Notes: generated from the letters alone by a model not told the origin. Positions 13,562-38,057 are shown, numbered from the stretch's first letter. The stretch: 64,000 bases of DNA from Bacilli bacterium (GCA_017468925.1 JAFUHI010000009.1:201874-265873), one strand, 5' to 3'. Program-made: numbers and translations.

Positions 13562-13955
13562 GGGCTCGTACTGGTTTTGACGGGGAAATTATCCGGCTCT
13601 GACTGCAGTGGCGTGGTGAGCTTAAACACCAAAAGGCAATAACTGCCAACAACTATTCTTTCAGGAACGCCCAGCGCGTCTCCTACGCTTGCGCTTAATT
13701 AAGTAACCTACGGGTTCCTCTCTGCGGAGATGGGCAGCTCGCTTCCACCTATTAAGTGCCTTCTAGGTGGGTCAAGCGTTAAAAAGGCAATAAGCGTATG
13801 CGGTTAACTAGCCGCCTACGACGAAAACCACTTTAGTCCCGTTCGATGGTTCTTGGTTGTGCCTTACCATCGAATCAAATATGGCATGACCTAAACTGTA
13901 GAGGTCATTGTGGGATGTTCTCCGGACAGGAGTTCGACTCTCCTCGGGTCCACCA
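13562..13955 (+). ncRNA. ssrA: tmRNA (SsrA)
   Basis: The 5' GGGCUCG pairs with the 3' CGGGUCC, followed by ACCA, and includes the G3:U pair. A T-arm is present ('AGGAG-UUCGACU-CUCCU'), as is the 5' 'UUUGACGGGG' block. The internal tag frame reads ...ANNYSFRNAQRVSYACA and ends at TAA 13696-98. Confidence 0.9.
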
Positions 13956-31308: not shown

Positions 31309-31382
31309 ATACTTATTTTAAGCAATTAACTCATATTTGATTAATGAAAGCGTTTTACTTAATGTGGGTTATAATCTTATCC

Positions 31383-32585
31383 ATGAAGAAAATATACATT
31401 TACCCCATTAGGTCGATGATGTCTCATGGCGATATGATTTCATCGGATTCAGAGAAGCTTTTATCGTCATTATCATCTTTGCTAGATGACTATGATTTTG
31501 AATTCATAGACAATTTCAAAAAAGCGAATGAAGATGGCATCGTCCTGATACTTGTTCAAAGCGGCGGAAGCGAAGGGATATTCAAAAACGAAGTCTACCC
31601 AAAATTCAAAGGACCTTATTATTTGCTTACATACGGCTCCTCAAATTCTTTGGCGGCTTCTTTGGAAATCCTCACATTTTTGAAGCAAAACAACAAAAAG
31701 GCTGAGGTTTTGCATGGAAATGACGAATATATTGCTAAAAGAATAAAAACAATTGCAGAAAGCGAAAACGTCTATAGCGTCAGTAGACTTGGTATTATAG
31801 GAGAGCCTAGCGATTGGCTTATTTCTTCATATGTAGATAAAAAACAATGCTTAGAAACATTCGGGATTGAATTGGTGGATATACCTCAGGAAGAAGTGAT
31901 TGAGGAAATTAAAGCAGCAAAAGAGGAAAAAGATACAGCATACAACTTTGAATATGATAAAAAGGAATTGTCAAAAGCTTTAAAAATATATGCCGCGCTG
32001 AAGAAAATCGTGGAGAAATATTCTCTTTCAGGGTTCACAATCCGCTGTTTTGACATCATTAAAGAAATAAAATCATCAGCCTGCCTTGCTTTATCATTGT
32101 TTAATAAAGATGATGTGATTGCCTCATGCGAAGGCGATGTTCCAGCGATGATAACGGCCTATTTGGCGTTGAAGAAACTTAAAGTCCATTCTTTCCAATG
32201 CAACCCTCAATGGATCGACCCATCAAAAGATGAGATTTATTTCGCCCACTGCACTTTGCCTCTAGATATGGCAAAATCAATCACATTATCCACTCACTTT
32301 GAGTCTGGAATCGGGATAGGAATCCATGGAGAAATGGAAGAAGGAGATGTCACTATTTTAAAAATCGGCGCAAAACTCGATGAATTTTATTGTGAAGAAG
32401 GGGTTATAGAGAAAAACGAATACAGGAAAGATCGCTGCAGAACCCAAATAAAAATAAAAATGAATTCATCAGTTAGATATTTTCTATCAGCTTCTTTGGG
32501 AAATCACCATCAGGTCATTTACGGCCATCATAGAAAAGAGATATCAGAATATCTATCTTCCTTTGGGCTTAGGCAAGTTATTTGA
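31383..32585 (+). CDS. Putative sugar isomerase (L-fucose/L-arabinose isomerase-like); weak assignment
   Basis: About 400-aa ORF. The family call rests only on general resemblance. The start is taken at 'MKKIYIYP'. Confidence 0.35.
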   Translation: MKKIYIYPIRSMMSHGDMISSDSEKLLSSLSSLLDDYDFEFIDNFKKANEDGIVLILVQSGGSEGIFKNEVYPKFKGPYYLLTYGSSNSLAASLEILTFLKQNNKKAEVLHGNDEYIAKRIKTIAESENVYSVSRLGIIGEPSDWLISSYVDKKQCLETFGIELVDIPQEEVIEEIKAAKEEKDTAYNFEYDKKELSKALKIYAALKKIVEKYSLSGFTIRCFDIIKEIKSSACLALSLFNKDDVIASCEGDVPAMITAYLALKKLKVHSFQCNPQWIDPSKDEIYFAHCTLPLDMAKSITLSTHFESGIGIGIHGEMEEGDVTILKIGAKLDEFYCEEGVIEKNEYRKDRCRTQIKIKMNSSVRYFLSASLGNHHQVIYGHHRKEISEYLSSFGLRQVI

Positions 32586-32877
32586 TTTTCTTCATCGACT
32601 TCTCGATCTCTCTTTTGACGAATTCCGCAAAAGCATCGGGATCGATTTGTCTGAAGGCATTGCTTATCAGTTCGCTTTGGTTCATTGATTTGAAGTCGCG
32701 GCCCACTAGATAATCAATGGTGACGTTAAATAAGTCTGCTAACGCTATAAGATGCTCAATATCCGGCTCATGGATGCCATTCTCCCAATTCAATATAGTT
32801 TGAGGGCTGGTTCCAACCGCCTTGCCGACATCTGTCTGTGTCATCTCATTCATTATTCTCAATTCACGTAGTCTCAT
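32578..32877 (-). CDS. XRE-family HTH regulator
   Basis: 'MTQTDVGKAVGTSPQTILNWENGIHEPDIEHLIALADLF'. It is divergent from the candidate ncRNA promoter. Confidence 0.8.
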   Translation of the reverse strand: MRLRELRIMNEMTQTDVGKAVGTSPQTILNWENGIHEPDIEHLIALADLFNVTIDYLVGRDFKSMNQSELISNAFRQIDPDAFAEFVKREIEKSMKKIK

Positions 32878-33215
32878 ATCTAAAACAATTCAATAAAATT
32901 TGAAAATTAAAAGAAAAACCAAGTTTTCGTATATGTAACTCTAAGAAAATTCAAGTAAACCTGAAATTTAAGCGATTTTACATTGAGGTTCTTGAGCGAA
33001 TTTTTTAATTGATAAATATGAGAAAAGCCATATTACATACATATTTATTTATATATATGTAACACGCGTATACGTGTGTAATATTTGTATGCAAAACATT
33101 TTTATAAAAAAACAAAATATTTTTGTGAAAAATTTTTAAAAAATAGCAAAAAAATATCAATTATCAGTGATTATACCTTAATAAAATAAAAGAATGTAAA
33201 GATTTAAAAAAAGTG

Positions 33216-33243
33216 TTGCATACACTTGTTGTAGGTGTACAAT
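33216..33243 (+). promoter_or_regulatory. Sigma-A-type promoter of the candidate large ncRNA
   Basis: TTGCAT (33216-21), a 16-nt spacer, then TACAAT (33238-43). It is preceded by more than 150 bp of A/T tracts that resemble an UP element. Confidence 0.6.
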
Positions 33244-33249
33244 ATACCA

Positions 33250-34714
33250 ACACCCCAAAAGAGAGGGCCGCAAGGTTCGCTCACAAGGGTGCTAGCAACT
33301 GATTGCAAAATCAGCTCTGCTACGGAGAGATAGATGCCATTGGAATCTAATTCCAAAAAACGTCTTCTCTGGTTAATCGCCAGGATTGGTTCAGATAACT
33401 TGTATGCTGGATCAAAAGGAACCCTTCGCCTCTCGGTAAACCGAAAAATGGAAGAGCCTCCCAAAACTTCAAGCTCGTCTTGAAGGGGAAAGGAACGCAA
33501 AGGACGCTTGAGTTCGTCTTAAGCAAGTCATCGCCAAGACACCCTGACGACTAGTAACCTAGAAAAAAGGGAGATTCGGAAAGGCCTTGAAACAGGACAA
33601 ATCCGAAAAGCAGGAAATAGCTGACTCTACAGCTTAGCCTCAGCGATAAGCCAACAATCGCCTGGTAAACCAGAAAACATGTTGCTGATCCGATAAATTC
33701 ACAAAAGGATCGAAATTCATCTCTCGCAGATGAAACAAGAGGAATTCTCCCTCTTCCGGTAGACCGGAAAAACGAAGAAACGAAGAGGATGACAACAACG
33801 CGTCTGAAACTTCGCAAATTCTTGTAGCAATTCAAGGATGAGGAAAAGCCAATCCTCTGGGTGCACCCAAAAACATCGGAAGCCTTGATTCTCTCCATCT
33901 TGCGAAAGATGGCTGAAATCAAAAGCGACTCCATCAAGTGAAAACTTGACGAAGCAACGAACTCCTAATCGCTGTCTGGTAGAACCAGAAAAACAAAAAG
34001 GGATATATCCGTAAGGATATGATGGGAGAAAAACCCATGGCAACGAAGATGGGCCAACGGTAAACCAAAAATCATCTCTTCTTAGCCTAGAAGCGGTATA
34101 AAGGCCGATTAACTTCGCTAAGATAAGCTTTGCATCCTCTAGATGTGGATCTGTGAAAACCTCATTCACCGGTGAAACCGTCAACAAAGAGGATACGAAT
34201 CTCTCGAATGATTCACTTCATTAGGGAAATCCGAAAACTTCTAGGAATTCATAACTAGAAGGTGCCGACAAAGGCTAGGCGTGCGGTAAACCGCTGGAAA
34301 TGCCTTAACCTCACATCTTCGGATGATGAGTAGTTGATCGAGGACATTCATTGTCTTCGAAGGAAGTCATTCCACCCTACAATTCGTAAAGTTGGAATGT
34401 GACATTAGAAACACGCTGAAGGGAGACGTAAGCGACATCTGATGCCGAGACTTGTCAAGAGTGATCCGAAACAAGCCTAGGAAGATAAGAGTTCTTCTCG
34501 CCAGTAAACTGGAGAAACAAAAACTTGTTCTGAACGACTTCCTCGCAAGGAGAGAAGCCAGTAAGAACTGATCAGAGCAATCTGAGTGGTTAATTGGAAC
34601 TTCCCACACGGTAAACCGTAAATAAAACATTCTCGTCGAATTTGGAGCTCATATAGACGTTAAAACGAAAAGCCGAGCGACACCTCGCAGTAATGCGAGG
34701 CGTTTTCTTTTTTT
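33250..34714 (+). ncRNA. Candidate giant structured non-coding RNA (~1.46 kb), family unknown
   Basis: Bounded by a promoter and a terminator, with no + strand ORF of 60 aa or more. It is GC-enriched relative to its flanks. It contains many 5-7-bp hairpins with GNRA/UUCG loops and ten GGUAAACC-type hairpin repeats. Confidence 0.6.
34683..34714 (+). terminator. Intrinsic terminator ending the candidate ncRNA
   Basis: CCTCGCA-GTAA-TGCGAGG followed by TTTTCTTTTTTT. Confidence 0.85.
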
Positions 34715-34715
34715 G

Positions 34716-34724
34716 TGATATAAT
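34716..34724 (+). promoter_or_regulatory. Extended -10 element (TGaTATAAT) ending 7 nt before the ATG of the next gene
   Basis: TG at 34716-17 and TATAAT at 34719-24. No Shine-Dalgarno sequence precedes the ATG at 34732. Confidence 0.4.
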
Positions 34725-34731
34725 CTTCAAT

Positions 34732-35754
34732 ATGAAACCTAAGCAATTTGATTATGAGCCGGAATATGCGACAATCGCGATGAAACAAGATGGTTTTTAT
34801 GTATGGGATTGCTCAACCATCAAGGTAGGAAATGAATACCATATGTTTTCTTCTCATTGGCCTTTTAAATTGGGCTTTGGATGGAATTGGCTATTCCATA
34901 GTGAAATCTGCCATTTCGTATCTTCATCACCAGAAGGTCCATTTGTGTTTAAGAACGTGGTATTTTCTAGAAGAGATAAGCATTATTTTGATGGAATGAA
35001 CACCCATAATACTTGCATCAAAGAATATAAAGGAAAGTTCTATTTATACTATATGGGCTGCACTTATCCAGGGCCTATTCCTCAGAATTTAAGTGAGATT
35101 GACGAGTATTTTGCAAGGGAAACGTGGAATCGCAAAAGAATTGGTGTCGCTGTTGCGGATGATATAAATGGTGAATTCGTTAGGCTAGATTCGCCTATTT
35201 TGGAACCAAGAGATTGCTCCCATTGGGATTGCACATGCACTACAAATCCTAGCGTTATCATAAAGCCAGATGGTACAACATATATGATTTATAAATCGAG
35301 GACTATGGCGACATCCCAATTGAAGTTAGGAATCGCTATTGCGCCTAGCCCCACTGGACCATTTTCTCGTTTGTGCGAAGGACCAATACTCGATATGGAT
35401 ATGGAAGATCCATTCATTTGGTACGATGAAAAAAGAAATAAATTCTGTTTGATAGCAAAAGACAATGAATTGAATAATAACGGCATTAACAAAGAATATG
35501 GCAGCGCTTTTTACGCCGAAAGCGATGATTGCATCAATTTTGAGGTGGCAGAATTCCCCAAAGTCTATTCAAGGACGATAAGATTTAAAGATGGTGCTAC
35601 TAAAACATTATGCAATCTAGAAAGACCATCAGTGTTGTTTGATGAAAATGGCGAGCCGTCATATATTTATTGCGCATCCGGCGATGGAGAAGGCCCATAC
35701 TGTTTTGTTGGGCCTACATATATTGTCGGAATAAAGCTGAAAAGGAGAAAATAG
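34732..35754 (+). CDS. Predicted glycoside hydrolase, beta-propeller type (GH43-like); family not verified
   Basis: About 340 aa. The blocks 'VWDCSTIKVGNEYHMFSS' and 'MEDPFIWYDEKRNKFCLIAKD' resemble GH43/32-clan blades. Confidence 0.5.
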   Translation: MKPKQFDYEPEYATIAMKQDGFYVWDCSTIKVGNEYHMFSSHWPFKLGFGWNWLFHSEICHFVSSSPEGPFVFKNVVFSRRDKHYFDGMNTHNTCIKEYKGKFYLYYMGCTYPGPIPQNLSEIDEYFARETWNRKRIGVAVADDINGEFVRLDSPILEPRDCSHWDCTCTTNPSVIIKPDGTTYMIYKSRTMATSQLKLGIAIAPSPTGPFSRLCEGPILDMDMEDPFIWYDEKRNKFCLIAKDNELNNNGINKEYGSAFYAESDDCINFEVAEFPKVYSRTIRFKDGATKTLCNLERPSVLFDENGEPSYIYCASGDGEGPYCFVGPTYIVGIKLKRRK

Positions 35755-35756
35755 TC

Positions 35757-36320
35757 ATGAAAGTAGTGTTGTTTGGCGATTCAATCCGTCTAATTGGGTA
35801 TGGTCCATTAGTTTCTGATATTTTAAAAGATAAGGGATATGATGTGTATCAACCCGAAGACAATTGCCGTTTCTGCAAATACACATTAAGACTCATCTTT
35901 GAGTTAGACCAATATATTAGAGATGCGGATATAATTCATTTTAATGTTGGTTTATGGGATGTTTGTACAATCAATAAAGATGGCAAAGCATTCTCTTCTA
36001 TTGAGGAATATAAGGAAAATTTAAGGAGAATTGCCGAATTATTCCTTGATATAACCCCACATGTCATATTTGCAACGACAACGCCTGTTAGGAAAGAAAA
36101 TCCATATAACATGAACGAAGTAATAGACAAATATAATGAAGTCGCAGTGGAAATAATGAAAGAATTAGGAATCAAAATCAATGATTTGAATTCGTTATTC
36201 AAAAACGATATCGAGAAATACATTAGGGCGGATGATTTGATTCATTTGACTGAAGAAGGGGCGGAATTAGCCGCAAAACAAGTCGCGGATATAATTGAAG
36301 AAGAAGCCAATTCTATTTAA
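35757..36320 (+). CDS. SGNH/GDSL-family hydrolase (esterase)
   Basis: Block I 'VVLFGDSIR', and near the C-terminus 'DLIHLTEEG' (the DxxH block). Confidence 0.75.
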   Translation: MKVVLFGDSIRLIGYGPLVSDILKDKGYDVYQPEDNCRFCKYTLRLIFELDQYIRDADIIHFNVGLWDVCTINKDGKAFSSIEEYKENLRRIAELFLDITPHVIFATTTPVRKENPYNMNEVIDKYNEVAVEIMKELGIKINDLNSLFKNDIEKYIRADDLIHLTEEGAELAAKQVADIIEEEANSI

Positions 36321-37821
36321 ACCGTTTCTTTCCTAAAAGAATCAATAACGTTGCAATTCCTGCACAAATTAGGATATTTAAGCATGCGGCAACAACCGAA
36401 ACAATAGCAGGACCAATTAGACCGCTCGCGAATAATCCTCTGGCGATGAATATGGCAGTTGGAGGAGCTATGAAGGAAGCGATTCCGCCAAATAAACCGA
36501 CAATTACATTAAGAGCGATATTGATTGCGTAATATCCTCTGGCAGTAGGATTCTCGCTTTCGCAAATCCCGAAGAACAAATTCTGATTAAAGCTTGGGTT
36601 TGTTATTTTATATGTATAGCCAAAATCCGTTTTCTCAAATTCCATATTGGTGTTGACGACGTAAGCGTCACTAATTTCAACATTGATGGTCAACTCATTG
36701 AAGGATTTCCAGTATTTGGCGGGTGTTAAAGCGTACGAAACACCATAAACATATGGGTCATATCTTGTGATAACTTTTGTTTTCAAATCATATTCAACAC
36801 TCATAGAGAATCTATTGTTATTGCCGGGCAAATCTAAGTCATATAGATACATTGCAATAACATCAGATCCGCCTAATGTTATATTTGCAATATTTGCGTA
36901 ATGATTCTGCCAGTATGAGAACAATAAAATATCGCCTATTGAGTCAGCACTTATTCCGTTTAACATTGACAAGGAATTTAATATTGAATTAAACGTTGTT
37001 TCTTTTAGTTTTTCTAATACAAAAACACCGTTTTCATAGACGGTTCTATATACATTATTAATCCGTTCGTTCCAGCTATAAGTTACTTTATCAATTTCTA
37101 CTTCGCTTGTTGAATAGAAAGAAAACGACATGCTTGTGGTAGAGGGATCTACATATTTGGTGAATTTTTTCTCATCATGAAAGTAATTTGGGCATCCATT
37201 CTCACCGAAAATAAATACATCATCGGGAGCGGTGTCGATGAAGTTTAAAGCTATTTCGAGATCTGCATAAGTGAAATTGGCGCCGTTTTTGCCGCGATTT
37301 ACAGATATTTTGTATTCATATAGCGTTTTGTCGTTATCTATCCTGCTTGCTTGGCTTGCGTTATATTCATCAAGCATTTCATAAAAATCCAAATACTGAA
37401 ATTCGCCACGATCCAGGTAATAAGGATTGAGGATTATGGTTTCTGCTTTAACCTTCTCATCATTGTATTTGATTGTCGGAGCATTGGTATTGCTTAAAAC
37501 ATCATCTAGGGTGGAAACAAAAGGGAAACCGAAAGATGCAGTTCTTGCTTCGCCAACATCGACAAGTTTATAATCCGCTTTTATATTGACTGAATTTGTT
37601 TTAATAAAATCTTCATATTTGCCCACTTTGAAATCAATTGTTTCAGATTCAACTTCAATCATGCTGTCTTTTGCAGGCATTATGGATGTTGTCCCTCCAC
37701 CTGGGTAGATAACTTCGGCGGAGTTGGCGTTGCTTTCTTTTGGAGAAGTGGCGATAGCAAAAAAGGAAGCCATTAGTAGTGGTAGCGTAAATAAAGAGAT
37801 TATTGTCTTGCCTTTTCTCAT
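36313..37821 (-). CDS. Secreted protein with a C-terminal multi-TM anchor, function unknown
   Basis: Signal-like 'MRKGKTIISLFTLPLLMASFFAIA' and a hydrophobic C-terminal region of about 90 aa. Confidence 0.6.
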   Translation of the reverse strand: MRKGKTIISLFTLPLLMASFFAIATSPKESNANSAEVIYPGGGTTSIMPAKDSMIEVESETIDFKVGKYEDFIKTNSVNIKADYKLVDVGEARTASFGFPFVSTLDDVLSNTNAPTIKYNDEKVKAETIILNPYYLDRGEFQYLDFYEMLDEYNASQASRIDNDKTLYEYKISVNRGKNGANFTYADLEIALNFIDTAPDDVFIFGENGCPNYFHDEKKFTKYVDPSTTSMSFSFYSTSEVEIDKVTYSWNERINNVYRTVYENGVFVLEKLKETTFNSILNSLSMLNGISADSIGDILLFSYWQNHYANIANITLGGSDVIAMYLYDLDLPGNNNRFSMSVEYDLKTKVITRYDPYVYGVSYALTPAKYWKSFNELTINVEISDAYVVNTNMEFEKTDFGYTYKITNPSFNQNLFFGICESENPTARGYYAINIALNVIVGLFGGIASFIAPPTAIFIARGLFASGLIGPAIVSVVAACLNILICAGIATLLILLGKKRFK

Positions 37822-38057
37822 ATTAATGACATCAAGTAGAATAGCAAAACCATTGTCCAAACTCCTGTTATAACAAAGGAAAGGACAAGTCCTGCTCTAC
37901 TGAGTTTGCTCCTACATTTCGCCCCTCTGGATAAAAAGCCTAAAACAATTCCTGCTGGGGCAAGAAATTCAGTCAAAGCAAAAAAGAAACAAAGAACAGC
38001 AAACGTATCTTTCTTGCTCCACGTGGCTTTTTCTTCCATAAACTTATTTTCGCACAT
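37818..38057 (-). CDS. Small membrane protein (2 TM)
   Basis: 79-aa ORF with two hydrophobic helices. Its stop overlaps the start of the downstream gene. Confidence 0.45.
   Translation of the reverse strand: MCENKFMEEKATWSKKDTFAVLCFFFALTEFLAPAGIVLGFLSRGAKCRSKLSRAGLVLSFVITGVWTMVLLFYLMSLI

Follow-up and report, generated by a model that had tools for sequence, protein, structure and literature searches.

The locus considered here raises the question of what a bacterium makes from about 1.46 kb of chromosome that runs from a promoter to a terminator and contains no credible open reading frame (ORF). It lies in a 64,000-nucleotide (nt) stretch from a Bacilli bacterium (GCA_017468925.1, JAFUHI010000009.1:201874-265873), referred to below as the window. 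A first-pass annotation made from this sequence had proposed a giant structured non-coding RNA (ncRNA) outside the known families, and our analysis supports that reading. The gene at ~33250-34714 on the + strand encodes a ~1.45-kb non-coding, highly structured RNA, and we hold with great confidence that it is an independent, free-standing gene whose promoter and intrinsic terminator are its own. At least two diverged Bacillota lineages from the rumen have kept the RNA, at chromosomal sites that are unrelated. It is very probably built from a 5' domain and 12 further degenerate tandem modules of ~105 nt, giving a 13-module architecture in which a stem (stem A) is followed by a small hairpin (hairpin B). 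It is apparently a new class of giant structured bacterial RNA, one that is built from repeats.

The promoter-to-terminator unit proposed by the first-pass annotation was borne out at both ends. The promoter (33216-33243, +), read from the sequence, has a -35 box TTGCAT (33216-33221), a 16-nt spacer, and a -10 box TACAAT (33238-33243), and an A/T-rich spacer (32878-33215; G+C 0.22-0.26) lies upstream of it. This promoter was not called by a consensus promoter scan because its -35 box agrees at only three of six positions. The second lineage has TTGACA-17-TAGAAT in the equivalent place, at an equal distance of 6-7 nt from a conserved 5' CACCC. Judged by contig ends, the transcript (33250-34714, +; ~1.43-1.46 kb) would start at ~33250 and end between ~34685 and the U-tract. 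Its 3' tail and intrinsic terminator (34620-34714, +) comprise the conserved GCGUUAAAAC.AAAAGCC, a stem-loop CCUCGCA-GUAA-UGCGAGG (34683-34700), and a U-tract (34701-34714). The terminator (34683-34714) was called by the consensus scan, and its stem covaries between lineages, with CCTCCTA-GTGA-TAGGAGG in the second lineage versus CCTCGCA-GTAA-TGCGAGG in the window. The 3' tail segment shows 63% identity between the lineages and a consensus-fold z of -8.0.

The interval between these signals does not behave as coding sequence. The longest + strand ORF within it is 49 amino acids (aa), in agreement with the earlier claim that none reaches 60 aa, and each + frame carries 24-30 stops in both lineages. 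No ORF on either strand is conserved between the two lineages; stop-free stretches are shared only where the nucleotides themselves are conserved, and there the sharing extends to several frames and both strands. There are more minus-strand ORFs than the four first listed (44-156 aa), but the judgment that they are non-coding holds, as they lack protein-level homology. The 156-aa minus-strand pseudo-ORF has only near-identical copies among 5.8 billion proteins (a 90%-identity cluster of 29 members), and a HMMER search with it against 1.84 billion representatives returned just two weak matches, to repeats in proteins longer than 1,800 aa. Protein-level matches to a minus-strand ORF had been named in advance as evidence against an RNA gene, and none was found. 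With no ORF conserved across lineages and no real protein homologue, a protein-coding gene on either strand was rejected. The composition is distinct, as had been noted: G+C is 0.43-0.45 inside the interval versus 0.34-0.39 in the flanking genes and 0.22-0.26 in the spacer, and the AT-skew of the + strand is +0.13 to +0.35 (A-rich).

What the interval does contain is internal repetition. A small hairpin, NGG-UAAA-CCN, followed by AAAAAC recurs every 83-121 nt. The string GGTRNAMCNNRAAA is present five times without mismatch within the interval and is absent from the rest of the 64 kb, and a three-module pattern gave four matches at two distinct places versus none in 100 shuffles. Thirteen module ends could be placed, at 33340, 33434, 33551, 33662, 33756, 33858, 33975, 34058, 34170, 34283, 34380, 34501, and 34608. 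In each module, one or two variable hairpins, often with GNRA or UNCG loops or purine-rich internal loops, come first and a constant core follows. The first-pass annotation had described a chain of short hairpins. All seven that it listed match hairpins of the minimum-free-energy fold, and the coordinates of two (33299-33314 and 33340-33356) were confirmed by eye, but they belong to 13 tandem modules rather than to a loose chain. Its choice of GNRA as the characteristic loop did not stand, as the dominant recurring loop is U-N-N-A, mostly UAAA. Nor did its A-rich "linkers", which are mostly a defined strand that follows hairpin B within a pseudoknot.

To find relatives, one genome per species was scanned with a two-module pattern across 185,579 species. 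Of 57 loci found, one was a true homologue, in a rumen metagenome-assembled genome (MAG) labelled uncultured Erysipelotrichaceae RUG14006 (L012). The other 56 were coding repeats (GKPEN, AT-hook GRPKK) or DNA tandem repeats; among the chance matches are ten 21-nt units of GGTGTACCGAAAAACTTTTTC in a Dysgonamonadaceae MAG (L034, 838-1040) and an array of 52-nt units in Rossellomorea vietnamensis (L006, 6836-7776). A metagenome scan with a 24-nt block conserved between the lineages added two more full-length second-lineage copies (L075 and L076) along with a high-GC chance match (L073), and viral contigs gave two chance matches only, to iterons and to an AT-hook coding repeat. The spurious ORFs that gene callers predict on the U-rich minus strand (pseudo-ORFs) served as further search handles. 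They led to near-identical copies only, and the HMMER search of the 1.84 billion representatives gave nothing real, so that no third lineage was reached by this route.

The two lineages are ~52% identical over ungapped columns. A global alignment is unreliable at this identity, and module-wise anchoring was therefore used. Both lineages have 13 module ends, and they are collinear from promoter to terminator, module for module. Module lengths correlate between them (r = 0.68), and the positional orthologue is the best match for 10 of 14 segments. Taken together, these observations indicate that the array is old and that each module has been kept.

The surroundings of the gene, in contrast, differ entirely. 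In the window its neighbours are an XRE regulator and GH43-like and SGNH hydrolases; in the second lineage they are oligopeptide ATP-binding cassette (ABC) ATPases, DUF3899, and an M13 peptidase, none of them common to the window. Unrelated neighbours argue for a free-standing gene rather than a leader. It could still be asked whether the interval is not an RNA gene of its own but a 5' leader of the GH43-like gene, the mRNA of a small protein, a decayed pseudogene, or a DNA repeat array with assembly breakpoints. The downstream gene is indeed co-oriented and starts 18 nt past the U-tract, but a strong terminator precedes it and it has its own -10 box. A small-protein mRNA or pseudogene is opposed by the lack of any conserved ORF or protein homologue, and all of these readings by the compensatory changes that keep the RNA helices. 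The short contigs described below come from samples of unverified type; DNA contigs of the same species (3.8-83 kb), however, run through the locus unbroken and carry it with its flanks at 98.5-100% identity. We therefore regard this group of explanations as very improbable. A cis-regulatory leader or riboswitch was rejected on the same two observations, namely the completely different neighbours and the strong terminator at 34683-34714.

Public contigs provide a view of the likely transcript. Dozens of those that carry either lineage are RNA-sized, at 0.9-1.55 kb. All 39 index blocks with pseudo-ORFs of either lineage hold only contigs shorter than 2 kb, while the flanking GH43 gene of the same species is confined to contigs of between 20 kb and 1 Mb and the XRE gene is on contigs longer than 2 kb in 23 of 34 blocks. 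We fetched 15 window-lineage contigs, which match the window at ~99% identity; all of them are confined to 33257-34685, and none extends into a flanking gene. Their 5' ends fall at 33257-33355, 14 of them at 33257-33272, and a second-lineage contig (L078) starts ~10 nt past its own -10 box. At the other end, in contig L069 (1-33), the remnant of an Illumina adapter is joined directly to position 34685, where the terminator hairpin has its foot. Assemblies of 1.3-1.55 kb that span every module joint turned up repeatedly. The short contigs are thus probably assembled transcripts of a discrete ~1.43-kb RNA, and the RNA appears to be abundant in rumen samples. A literature search found no paper citing the sample accessions. 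Two contigs have foreign ends (L059, 1414-1547, 134 nt; L077, 1-164, 164 nt), unrelated stretches that mark them as chimeric assemblies. The window also holds a complete transfer-messenger RNA (tmRNA) gene at 13562-13955 (+; Rfam RF00023, 112 bits, E = 5.7e-43), which offers an internal expression yardstick for the giant RNA.

The structure of this RNA is well above chance. Its two halves fold at z = -5.24 and -5.01 relative to dinucleotide shuffles, with none of 20 shuffles as good, and module-wise consensus folds of the two lineages have a mean z of -4.6. These folds contain 72 compensatory pairs and a single broken one; column-shuffled alignments give 21.8±5.3 compensatory pairs (maximum 39). 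The claim that the RNA is structured is therefore upheld, and the structure is conserved across two lineages. Assignment to the + strand rests on the conserved promoter and terminator, on tetraloop identity, and on the A content of the loops: GNRA or UNCG loops cap 8 of 38 tetraloop hairpins on the + strand versus 3 of 57 on the minus strand, and 52% of unpaired positions are A in both lineages.

The anatomy of the module core was taken from an alignment of 22 cores from both lineages. Stem A (3-7 bp) is followed after 0-3 nt by hairpin B, with its U-N-N-A loop, and then by the A-rich strand (AAAAAC). MAFFT cannot align stem A across the variable loops, and pairing and energies of the core were therefore tested directly rather than through a covariance model. 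In hairpin B, 87% of cells are paired versus 62% in shuffled data, covariation is 0.65 versus 0.19 (0 of 500 shuffles), and slid registers reach 10-40%. Its loop stays constant while its stem varies freely; the recurrent loops are UAAA, UAGA, UGCA, and UGAA. A hairpin anchored 0-3 nt 5' of hairpin B has a mean energy of -3.49 kcal/mol versus -0.80 kcal/mol in shuffles (z = -9.2). Stem A differs in sequence between orthologues (e.g., GCGAU/AUCGC versus GUG/CAC, and GUGAA/UUCAC versus GGCGG/CCGCC). The stems covary, and apart from the hairpin-B loop and the A-run no sequence is shared by every module.

In about three quarters of the modules, a short strand (4-6 nt) 3' of the A-rich strand is complementary to the 3' part of the stem-A loop, and the core probably forms a classical H-type pseudoknot. 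Duplexes between a loop and its own downstream strand average -4.44 kcal/mol in the window versus -2.44 kcal/mol for non-cognate combinations (p = 0.0005); in the second lineage the values are -6.01 and -3.54 kcal/mol (p = 0.0013). Seven orthologous pairs occupy matching places with differing sequences, as expected from compensatory change in a loop that pairs with a 3' strand. Numbering the modules M0 (the 5' domain) to M12, and giving the window first and the second lineage second, they are CUUC/GAAG and UUCC/GGAA in M1, CAACA/UGUUG and CGCUUC/GAAGCG in M3, UCCU/AGGG and GACUU/AGGUC in M6, AGAUG/CAUCU and AAUGG/CCAUU in M7, CCUC/GAGG and UUUCC/GGAAA in M8, AAGGC/GCCUU and AAGCC/GGCUU in M9, and GAGU/ACUU and AUGG/CCAU in M11. 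Read by eye, loop 1 measures 2-7 nt and loop 2 0-2 nt, and loop 3, which faces a helix 1 of 3-7 bp, is made up of hairpin B and an A-rich strand of 5-10 nt. These lengths fit a classical H-type pseudoknot, in which this third loop would follow the minor groove of stem A.

The regular ~105-nt period, the A-rich single-stranded joints, and the fact that every module ends in a hairpin would also suit a polycistronic precursor, in which cleavage within the A-rich single strands would release from a 1.45-kb transcript ~13 RNAs of ~100 nt, each acting by itself. However, contigs spanning all joints are assembled time and again, the A-run is already explained by the pseudoknot, and no module has a terminator of its own or a conserved seed-like single-stranded region. 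We give this explanation a low probability.

The individual modules, all on the + strand, differ in how clearly they show the common plan. The 5' domain M0 (33250-33356) has a closing helix, CACCC/GGGUG, around a GCAA-capped hairpin, together with the hairpins at 33299-33314 (GCAA loop) and 33340-33356, the latter followed by AAAAAAC; folded jointly with its orthologue, it gives z = -3.8 and four compensatory pairs. M1 (33357-33443) has stem A at 33417-33431, hairpin B CGG-UAAA-CCG at 33434-33443, and its pseudoknot between CUUC (33424-33427) and GAAG (33451-33454). M2 (33444-33562) has stem A at 33527-33551, hairpin B CUAG-UAAC-CUAG at 33551-33562, and a conserved tail, AAAAAAGGGAGAU, in which a GGG is able to pair with CCC in the stem-A loop. 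The M2 orthologue has different stems A and B (CACCA/UGGUG and GCG/CGC), but its pseudoknot gives no covariation because both strands are invariant. M3 (33563-33673) combines stem A GCGAU/AUCGC (33643-33661) and hairpin B CUGG-UAAA-CCAG (33662-33673) with a pseudoknot between CAACA (33652-33656) and UGUUG (33680-33684). M4 (33674-33767) has hairpins at 33687-33711 and 33716-33734, stem A at 33738-33754, and hairpin B CCGG-UAGA-CCGG at 33756-33767; its candidate pseudoknot, AUUCUC/GAGGAU (33785-33790), is ambiguous, and its consensus fold has z = -7.2. M5 (33768-33869) begins with a long hairpin with a purine-rich internal loop (33781-33815), followed by stem A (33840-33857) and hairpin B UGGG-UGCA-CCCA (33858-33869). 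It has no convincing pseudoknot in the window (-2.0 kcal/mol), while the orthologue has UCCUA/UAGGA at -5.8 kcal/mol; the consensus fold has z = -6.7 and seven compensatory pairs. M6 (33870-33989) has the GCGA-looped hairpin at 33895-33912, stem A at 33955-33974, hairpin B UCUGG-UAGAA-CCAGA at 33975-33989, and a pseudoknot of UCCU with AGGG (33999-34002).

M7 (33990-34067) is the shortest module in both lineages, with periods of 83 and 84 nt. It contains the GUAA-looped hairpin at 34005-34020, stem A at 34039-34055, hairpin B at 34058-34067, and a pseudoknot of GAAGAUG with CAUCU(C)UUC (34072-34080); its consensus fold has z = -8.9 and eight compensatory pairs. M8 (34068-34180) has stem A GUGAA/UUCAC (34153-34169), hairpin B CGG-UGAAA-CCG (34170-34180), and a pseudoknot of CCUC with GAGG (34189-34192), where the orthologue has GGCGG/CCGCC and UUUCCU/AGGAAA. 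M9 (34181-34294) is the most conserved module, and a 24-nt block, AGGCGTGCGGTAAACCGCTGGAAA (34277-34300), is identical in both lineages. It has a hairpin (34236-34259) with an invariant loop, AAUUCAUAA, stem A GUGCC/GGCGU (34262-34282), hairpin B (34283-34294), and a pseudoknot of AAGGC (34271-34275) with GCCUU (34302-34306), which the orthologue keeps by a compensatory change; its consensus fold has z = -8.9. M10 (34295-34395), with hairpins at 34314-34325 (UUCG loop) and 34338-34356, is aberrant in both lineages. A long helix, GUCA-UUCCA/UGGAA-UG-UGAC, competes with the stem A/hairpin B layout (34362-34404), the two being mutually exclusive, and the second lineage (L076) has an alternative long helix, AUCUCUCUU/AAGAGAGAU, at the matching position. 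The two layouts may mark M10 as a conformational switch that has been conserved, or M10 may just have diverged. M11 (34396-34512) has stem A GAAGA/UCUUC (34481-34497) and hairpin B CCAG-UAAA-CUGG (34501-34512), with a pseudoknot that is weak in the window (-1.7 kcal/mol) and stronger in the orthologue (-4.3 kcal/mol) and a consensus-fold z of -4.7. In M12 (34513-34619), stem A is GUGG/CCAC (34586-34607), hairpin B is ACGG-UAAA-CCGU (34608-34619), and the pseudoknot is uncertain; the orthologue has GUCU/AGAC and GAGG/CCUC, and the consensus fold has z = -5.2 and seven compensatory pairs.

None of the families with a covariance model accounts for this RNA. A cmscan of the whole window against Rfam 15 (4227 families) at gathering thresholds returned the tmRNA only, and permissive scans (E<=10) of 33100-34800 and of the second-lineage RNA returned only noise, at 16.4, 14.6, and 13.7 bits versus gathering thresholds of 70, 81, and 40. 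The earlier claim that it belongs to no known family thus withstood the Rfam check in both lineages. The models without a match include GOLLD, ROOL, OLE, HEARO, and raiA, as well as riboswitches, RNase P, the signal recognition particle (SRP) RNA, 6S, T-box, group I/II introns, and STAXI, which is assumed to be among the 4227. ARAGORN found no tmRNA, tRNA-like RNA, or tRNA-like module in 33000-34900, the genome's real tmRNA being the one at 13562-13955. In the literature, we found no description of such an RNA or architecture for any bacterium. The RNA nevertheless has the marks of an ornate ncRNA: it is longer than 500 nt, intergenic, and equipped with its own promoter and terminator, and its structure is conserved with compensatory changes in two lineages.

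The first-pass annotation had likened the element to OLE, GOLLD, and ROOL, and this likeness is useful as an analogy but not as a claim of membership. Shared features are a large, intergenic, stand-alone gene, dense conserved structure, A-rich unpaired regions, stable tetraloops, occurrence in Bacillota (and in the rumen, as for ROOL), and a function that is not evident from sequence. Those RNAs, however, are single-copy folds that multimerise, for which internal repetition is not described, whereas the giant RNA strings 13 tandem paralogous modules along one chain and lies outside a prophage context. At ~1.45 kb it is longer than any of the three, as had been claimed, and presumably about twice their length. 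A row of H-type pseudoknots within one bacterial RNA is familiar from tmRNA, where PK1-PK4 serve as structural scaffold rather than as sequence information. The giant RNA differs in having no tRNA-like domain or tag frame, and 12-13 rather than four pseudoknots with one inserted hairpin common to all. STAXI, which Weinberg and colleagues reportedly described in 2010, is said to be a small pseudoknot repeated in tandem. It is similar in that respect, but the unit of the giant RNA is much larger, with extra hairpins, and has no link to ssb, topoisomerase, antirestriction, or integrase genes.

What such an RNA might do can be approached through the part that is repeated. The hairpin-B loop and the A-run are the only shared sequence, and the A-run is explained by the pseudoknot; a multivalent scaffold for a protein partner is therefore the function that we favour, although tentatively and at somewhat less than even confidence, as it is read from architecture. 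The pseudoknots would act as rigid pedestals presenting one small hairpin 12-13 times along the chain, with the UAAA loop exposed at the end of a rigid helical stack. Many copies of a single partner, for which a protein is the likeliest candidate, could then be bound, and the RNA may thereby order them into a defined particle or keep them from other targets. CsrB/RsmZ sponges, and eukaryotic repeat-built long non-coding RNAs such as NORAD, display many copies of a small motif on one RNA. The repeated small hairpin makes CsrB/RsmZ a model for the proposed multivalent binding, but the loops here are U-N-N-A rather than GGA, and the modules, which are tenfold larger, are orthologous one by one across the lineages, while in Csr/Rsm RNAs repeat number and spacers turn over freely. 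A Csr/Rsm-type sponge as such was rejected, since the GGA triplets lie not in hairpin loops but, by eye, mostly in pseudoknot strands. An anti-Shine-Dalgarno sponge was likewise set aside (the CCUC motifs are, by eye, mostly stem strands), and the 11-nt tetraloop receptor is, by eye, not recurrent.

A protein may not be needed at all. Instead, A-minor contacts and docked UAAA loops could hold the 13 modules against one another in a closed ring or solenoid, which would resemble the homo-oligomeric ROOL/GOLLD cages but be pseudo-symmetric and covalently linked. OLE, ROOL, and GOLLD form RNA-only multimers or defined particles via A-minor contacts and kissing loops (PMC12286853), which sets a precedent. 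The unpaired bases are 52% A, and the number, order, and lengths of the modules, including oddities such as the short M7 and the aberrant M10, are kept at ~52% identity, which fits a unique fold better than a sponge. However, vertical descent without rearrangement would also explain the conserved order, no recurrent receptor motif for the UAAA loop was seen by eye in the variable hairpins, and four-nucleotide loops cannot form kissing complexes. We consider an RNA-only assembly unlikely. The wider idea that the modules are repeats of a single pseudo-symmetric fold (ring or solenoid), an RNA equivalent of a tandem-repeat protein, or else that the 12-13 evenly spaced UAAA hairpins nucleate a protein shell in the manner of viral packaging signals, is likewise a doubtful one.

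The core geometry also recalls tandem aptamers, in which each pseudoknot module binds a small molecule or ion and the RNA buffers or senses its ligand cooperatively. The topology of the core is that of small H-type pseudoknot aptamers (preQ1-I and SAM-II type): a stem, a loop with the 5' strand of helix 2, and an A-rich tail that pairs with the loop at its end and would run in the minor groove. The short loops 1 and 2, as read by eye, agree with this. Unlike in those aptamers, hairpin B is inserted before the A-rich tail, there are no conserved pocket nucleotides (the stem-A loop sequences differ between modules), and the RNA is not a 5' untranslated region with a conserved position upstream of a regulated gene. 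As no riboswitch family matched even at E<=10, we find tandem aptamers improbable.

Several observations weigh against the reading of the RNA as a pseudoknotted, modular scaffold. No neighbouring gene is common to both lineages, and the proposed function is drawn from architecture. In the window, the pseudoknots of M5, M11, and M12 are weak and that of M4 is ambiguous, and M10 departs from the plan in both lineages. The limits of stem A and the pseudoknot were initially set by eye, a bias that the duplex-energy and anchored-hairpin tests lessen but do not remove. The covariation comes from two lineages only, as one orthologue comparison plus paralogous modules. The consensus-fold test does not assign the strand, as the reverse complement scores better (-180 versus -125 kcal/mol), as would be expected when an A-rich RNA has a U-rich complement. 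Natural variants among the ~99% identical copies are neutral evidence and too few to be decisive: 14 alleles keep and 12 break a predicted centroid pair, and among variants seen in at least two contigs, 8 keep and 3 break one. The RNA-sized contigs, finally, are only presumably from metatranscriptomes. For the combination of gene, modules, pseudoknots, and scaffold, which we take as the best explanation overall, our confidence is evenly balanced.

The immediate surroundings of the gene in the window hold a few further features. In the A/T-rich spacer, an inverted repeat is formed by TGTATGCAAAACATTTTT (33086-33103) and AAAAAAGTGTTGCATACA (33207-33224), whose arms, separated by 103 nt, show 89% complementarity; the one at 33207-33224 overlaps the -35 box of the RNA gene. 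A palindrome, ACACGCGTATACGTGTGT (33062-33079), lies between the RNA promoter and the divergent XRE-type helix-turn-helix gene (32578-32877, minus). Both elements could be candidate operators for control of the RNA by the XRE protein; no repeat of this kind was seen at the second-lineage promoter. Downstream, the GH43-like gene starts with ATG at 34732, 7 nt past an extended -10 box, TGATATAAT (34716-34724), with no Shine-Dalgarno sequence, and its mRNA is possibly leaderless. Two ORFs adjoining the locus, at 31344-32585 (+, 413 aa) and 36313-37860 (-, 515 aa), have no Pfam match at E<=0.001.

Very few bacterial ncRNAs longer than 500 nt are known, and OLE, GOLLD, ROOL, and raiA each opened a new question in RNA biology, three of them proving to form RNA-only particles of a kind not seen before. 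The giant RNA described here follows a different building principle, with ~13 tandem, individually conserved pseudoknot modules in one chain. If this is confirmed, bacteria would have their first example of a giant structured RNA built from repeats, and with it a test case for the evolution of large RNA folds by internal duplication; the regular, rigid, and modular design could also interest RNA nanotechnology. Should the ring, solenoid, or shell reading prove true, it would be a natural RNA architecture without described bacterial precedent. Once confirmed, the RNA would also be a target for cryo-electron microscopy and may offer a route to a new RNA-protein machine in Erysipelotrichaceae, a family that is important in rumen and gut fermentation.

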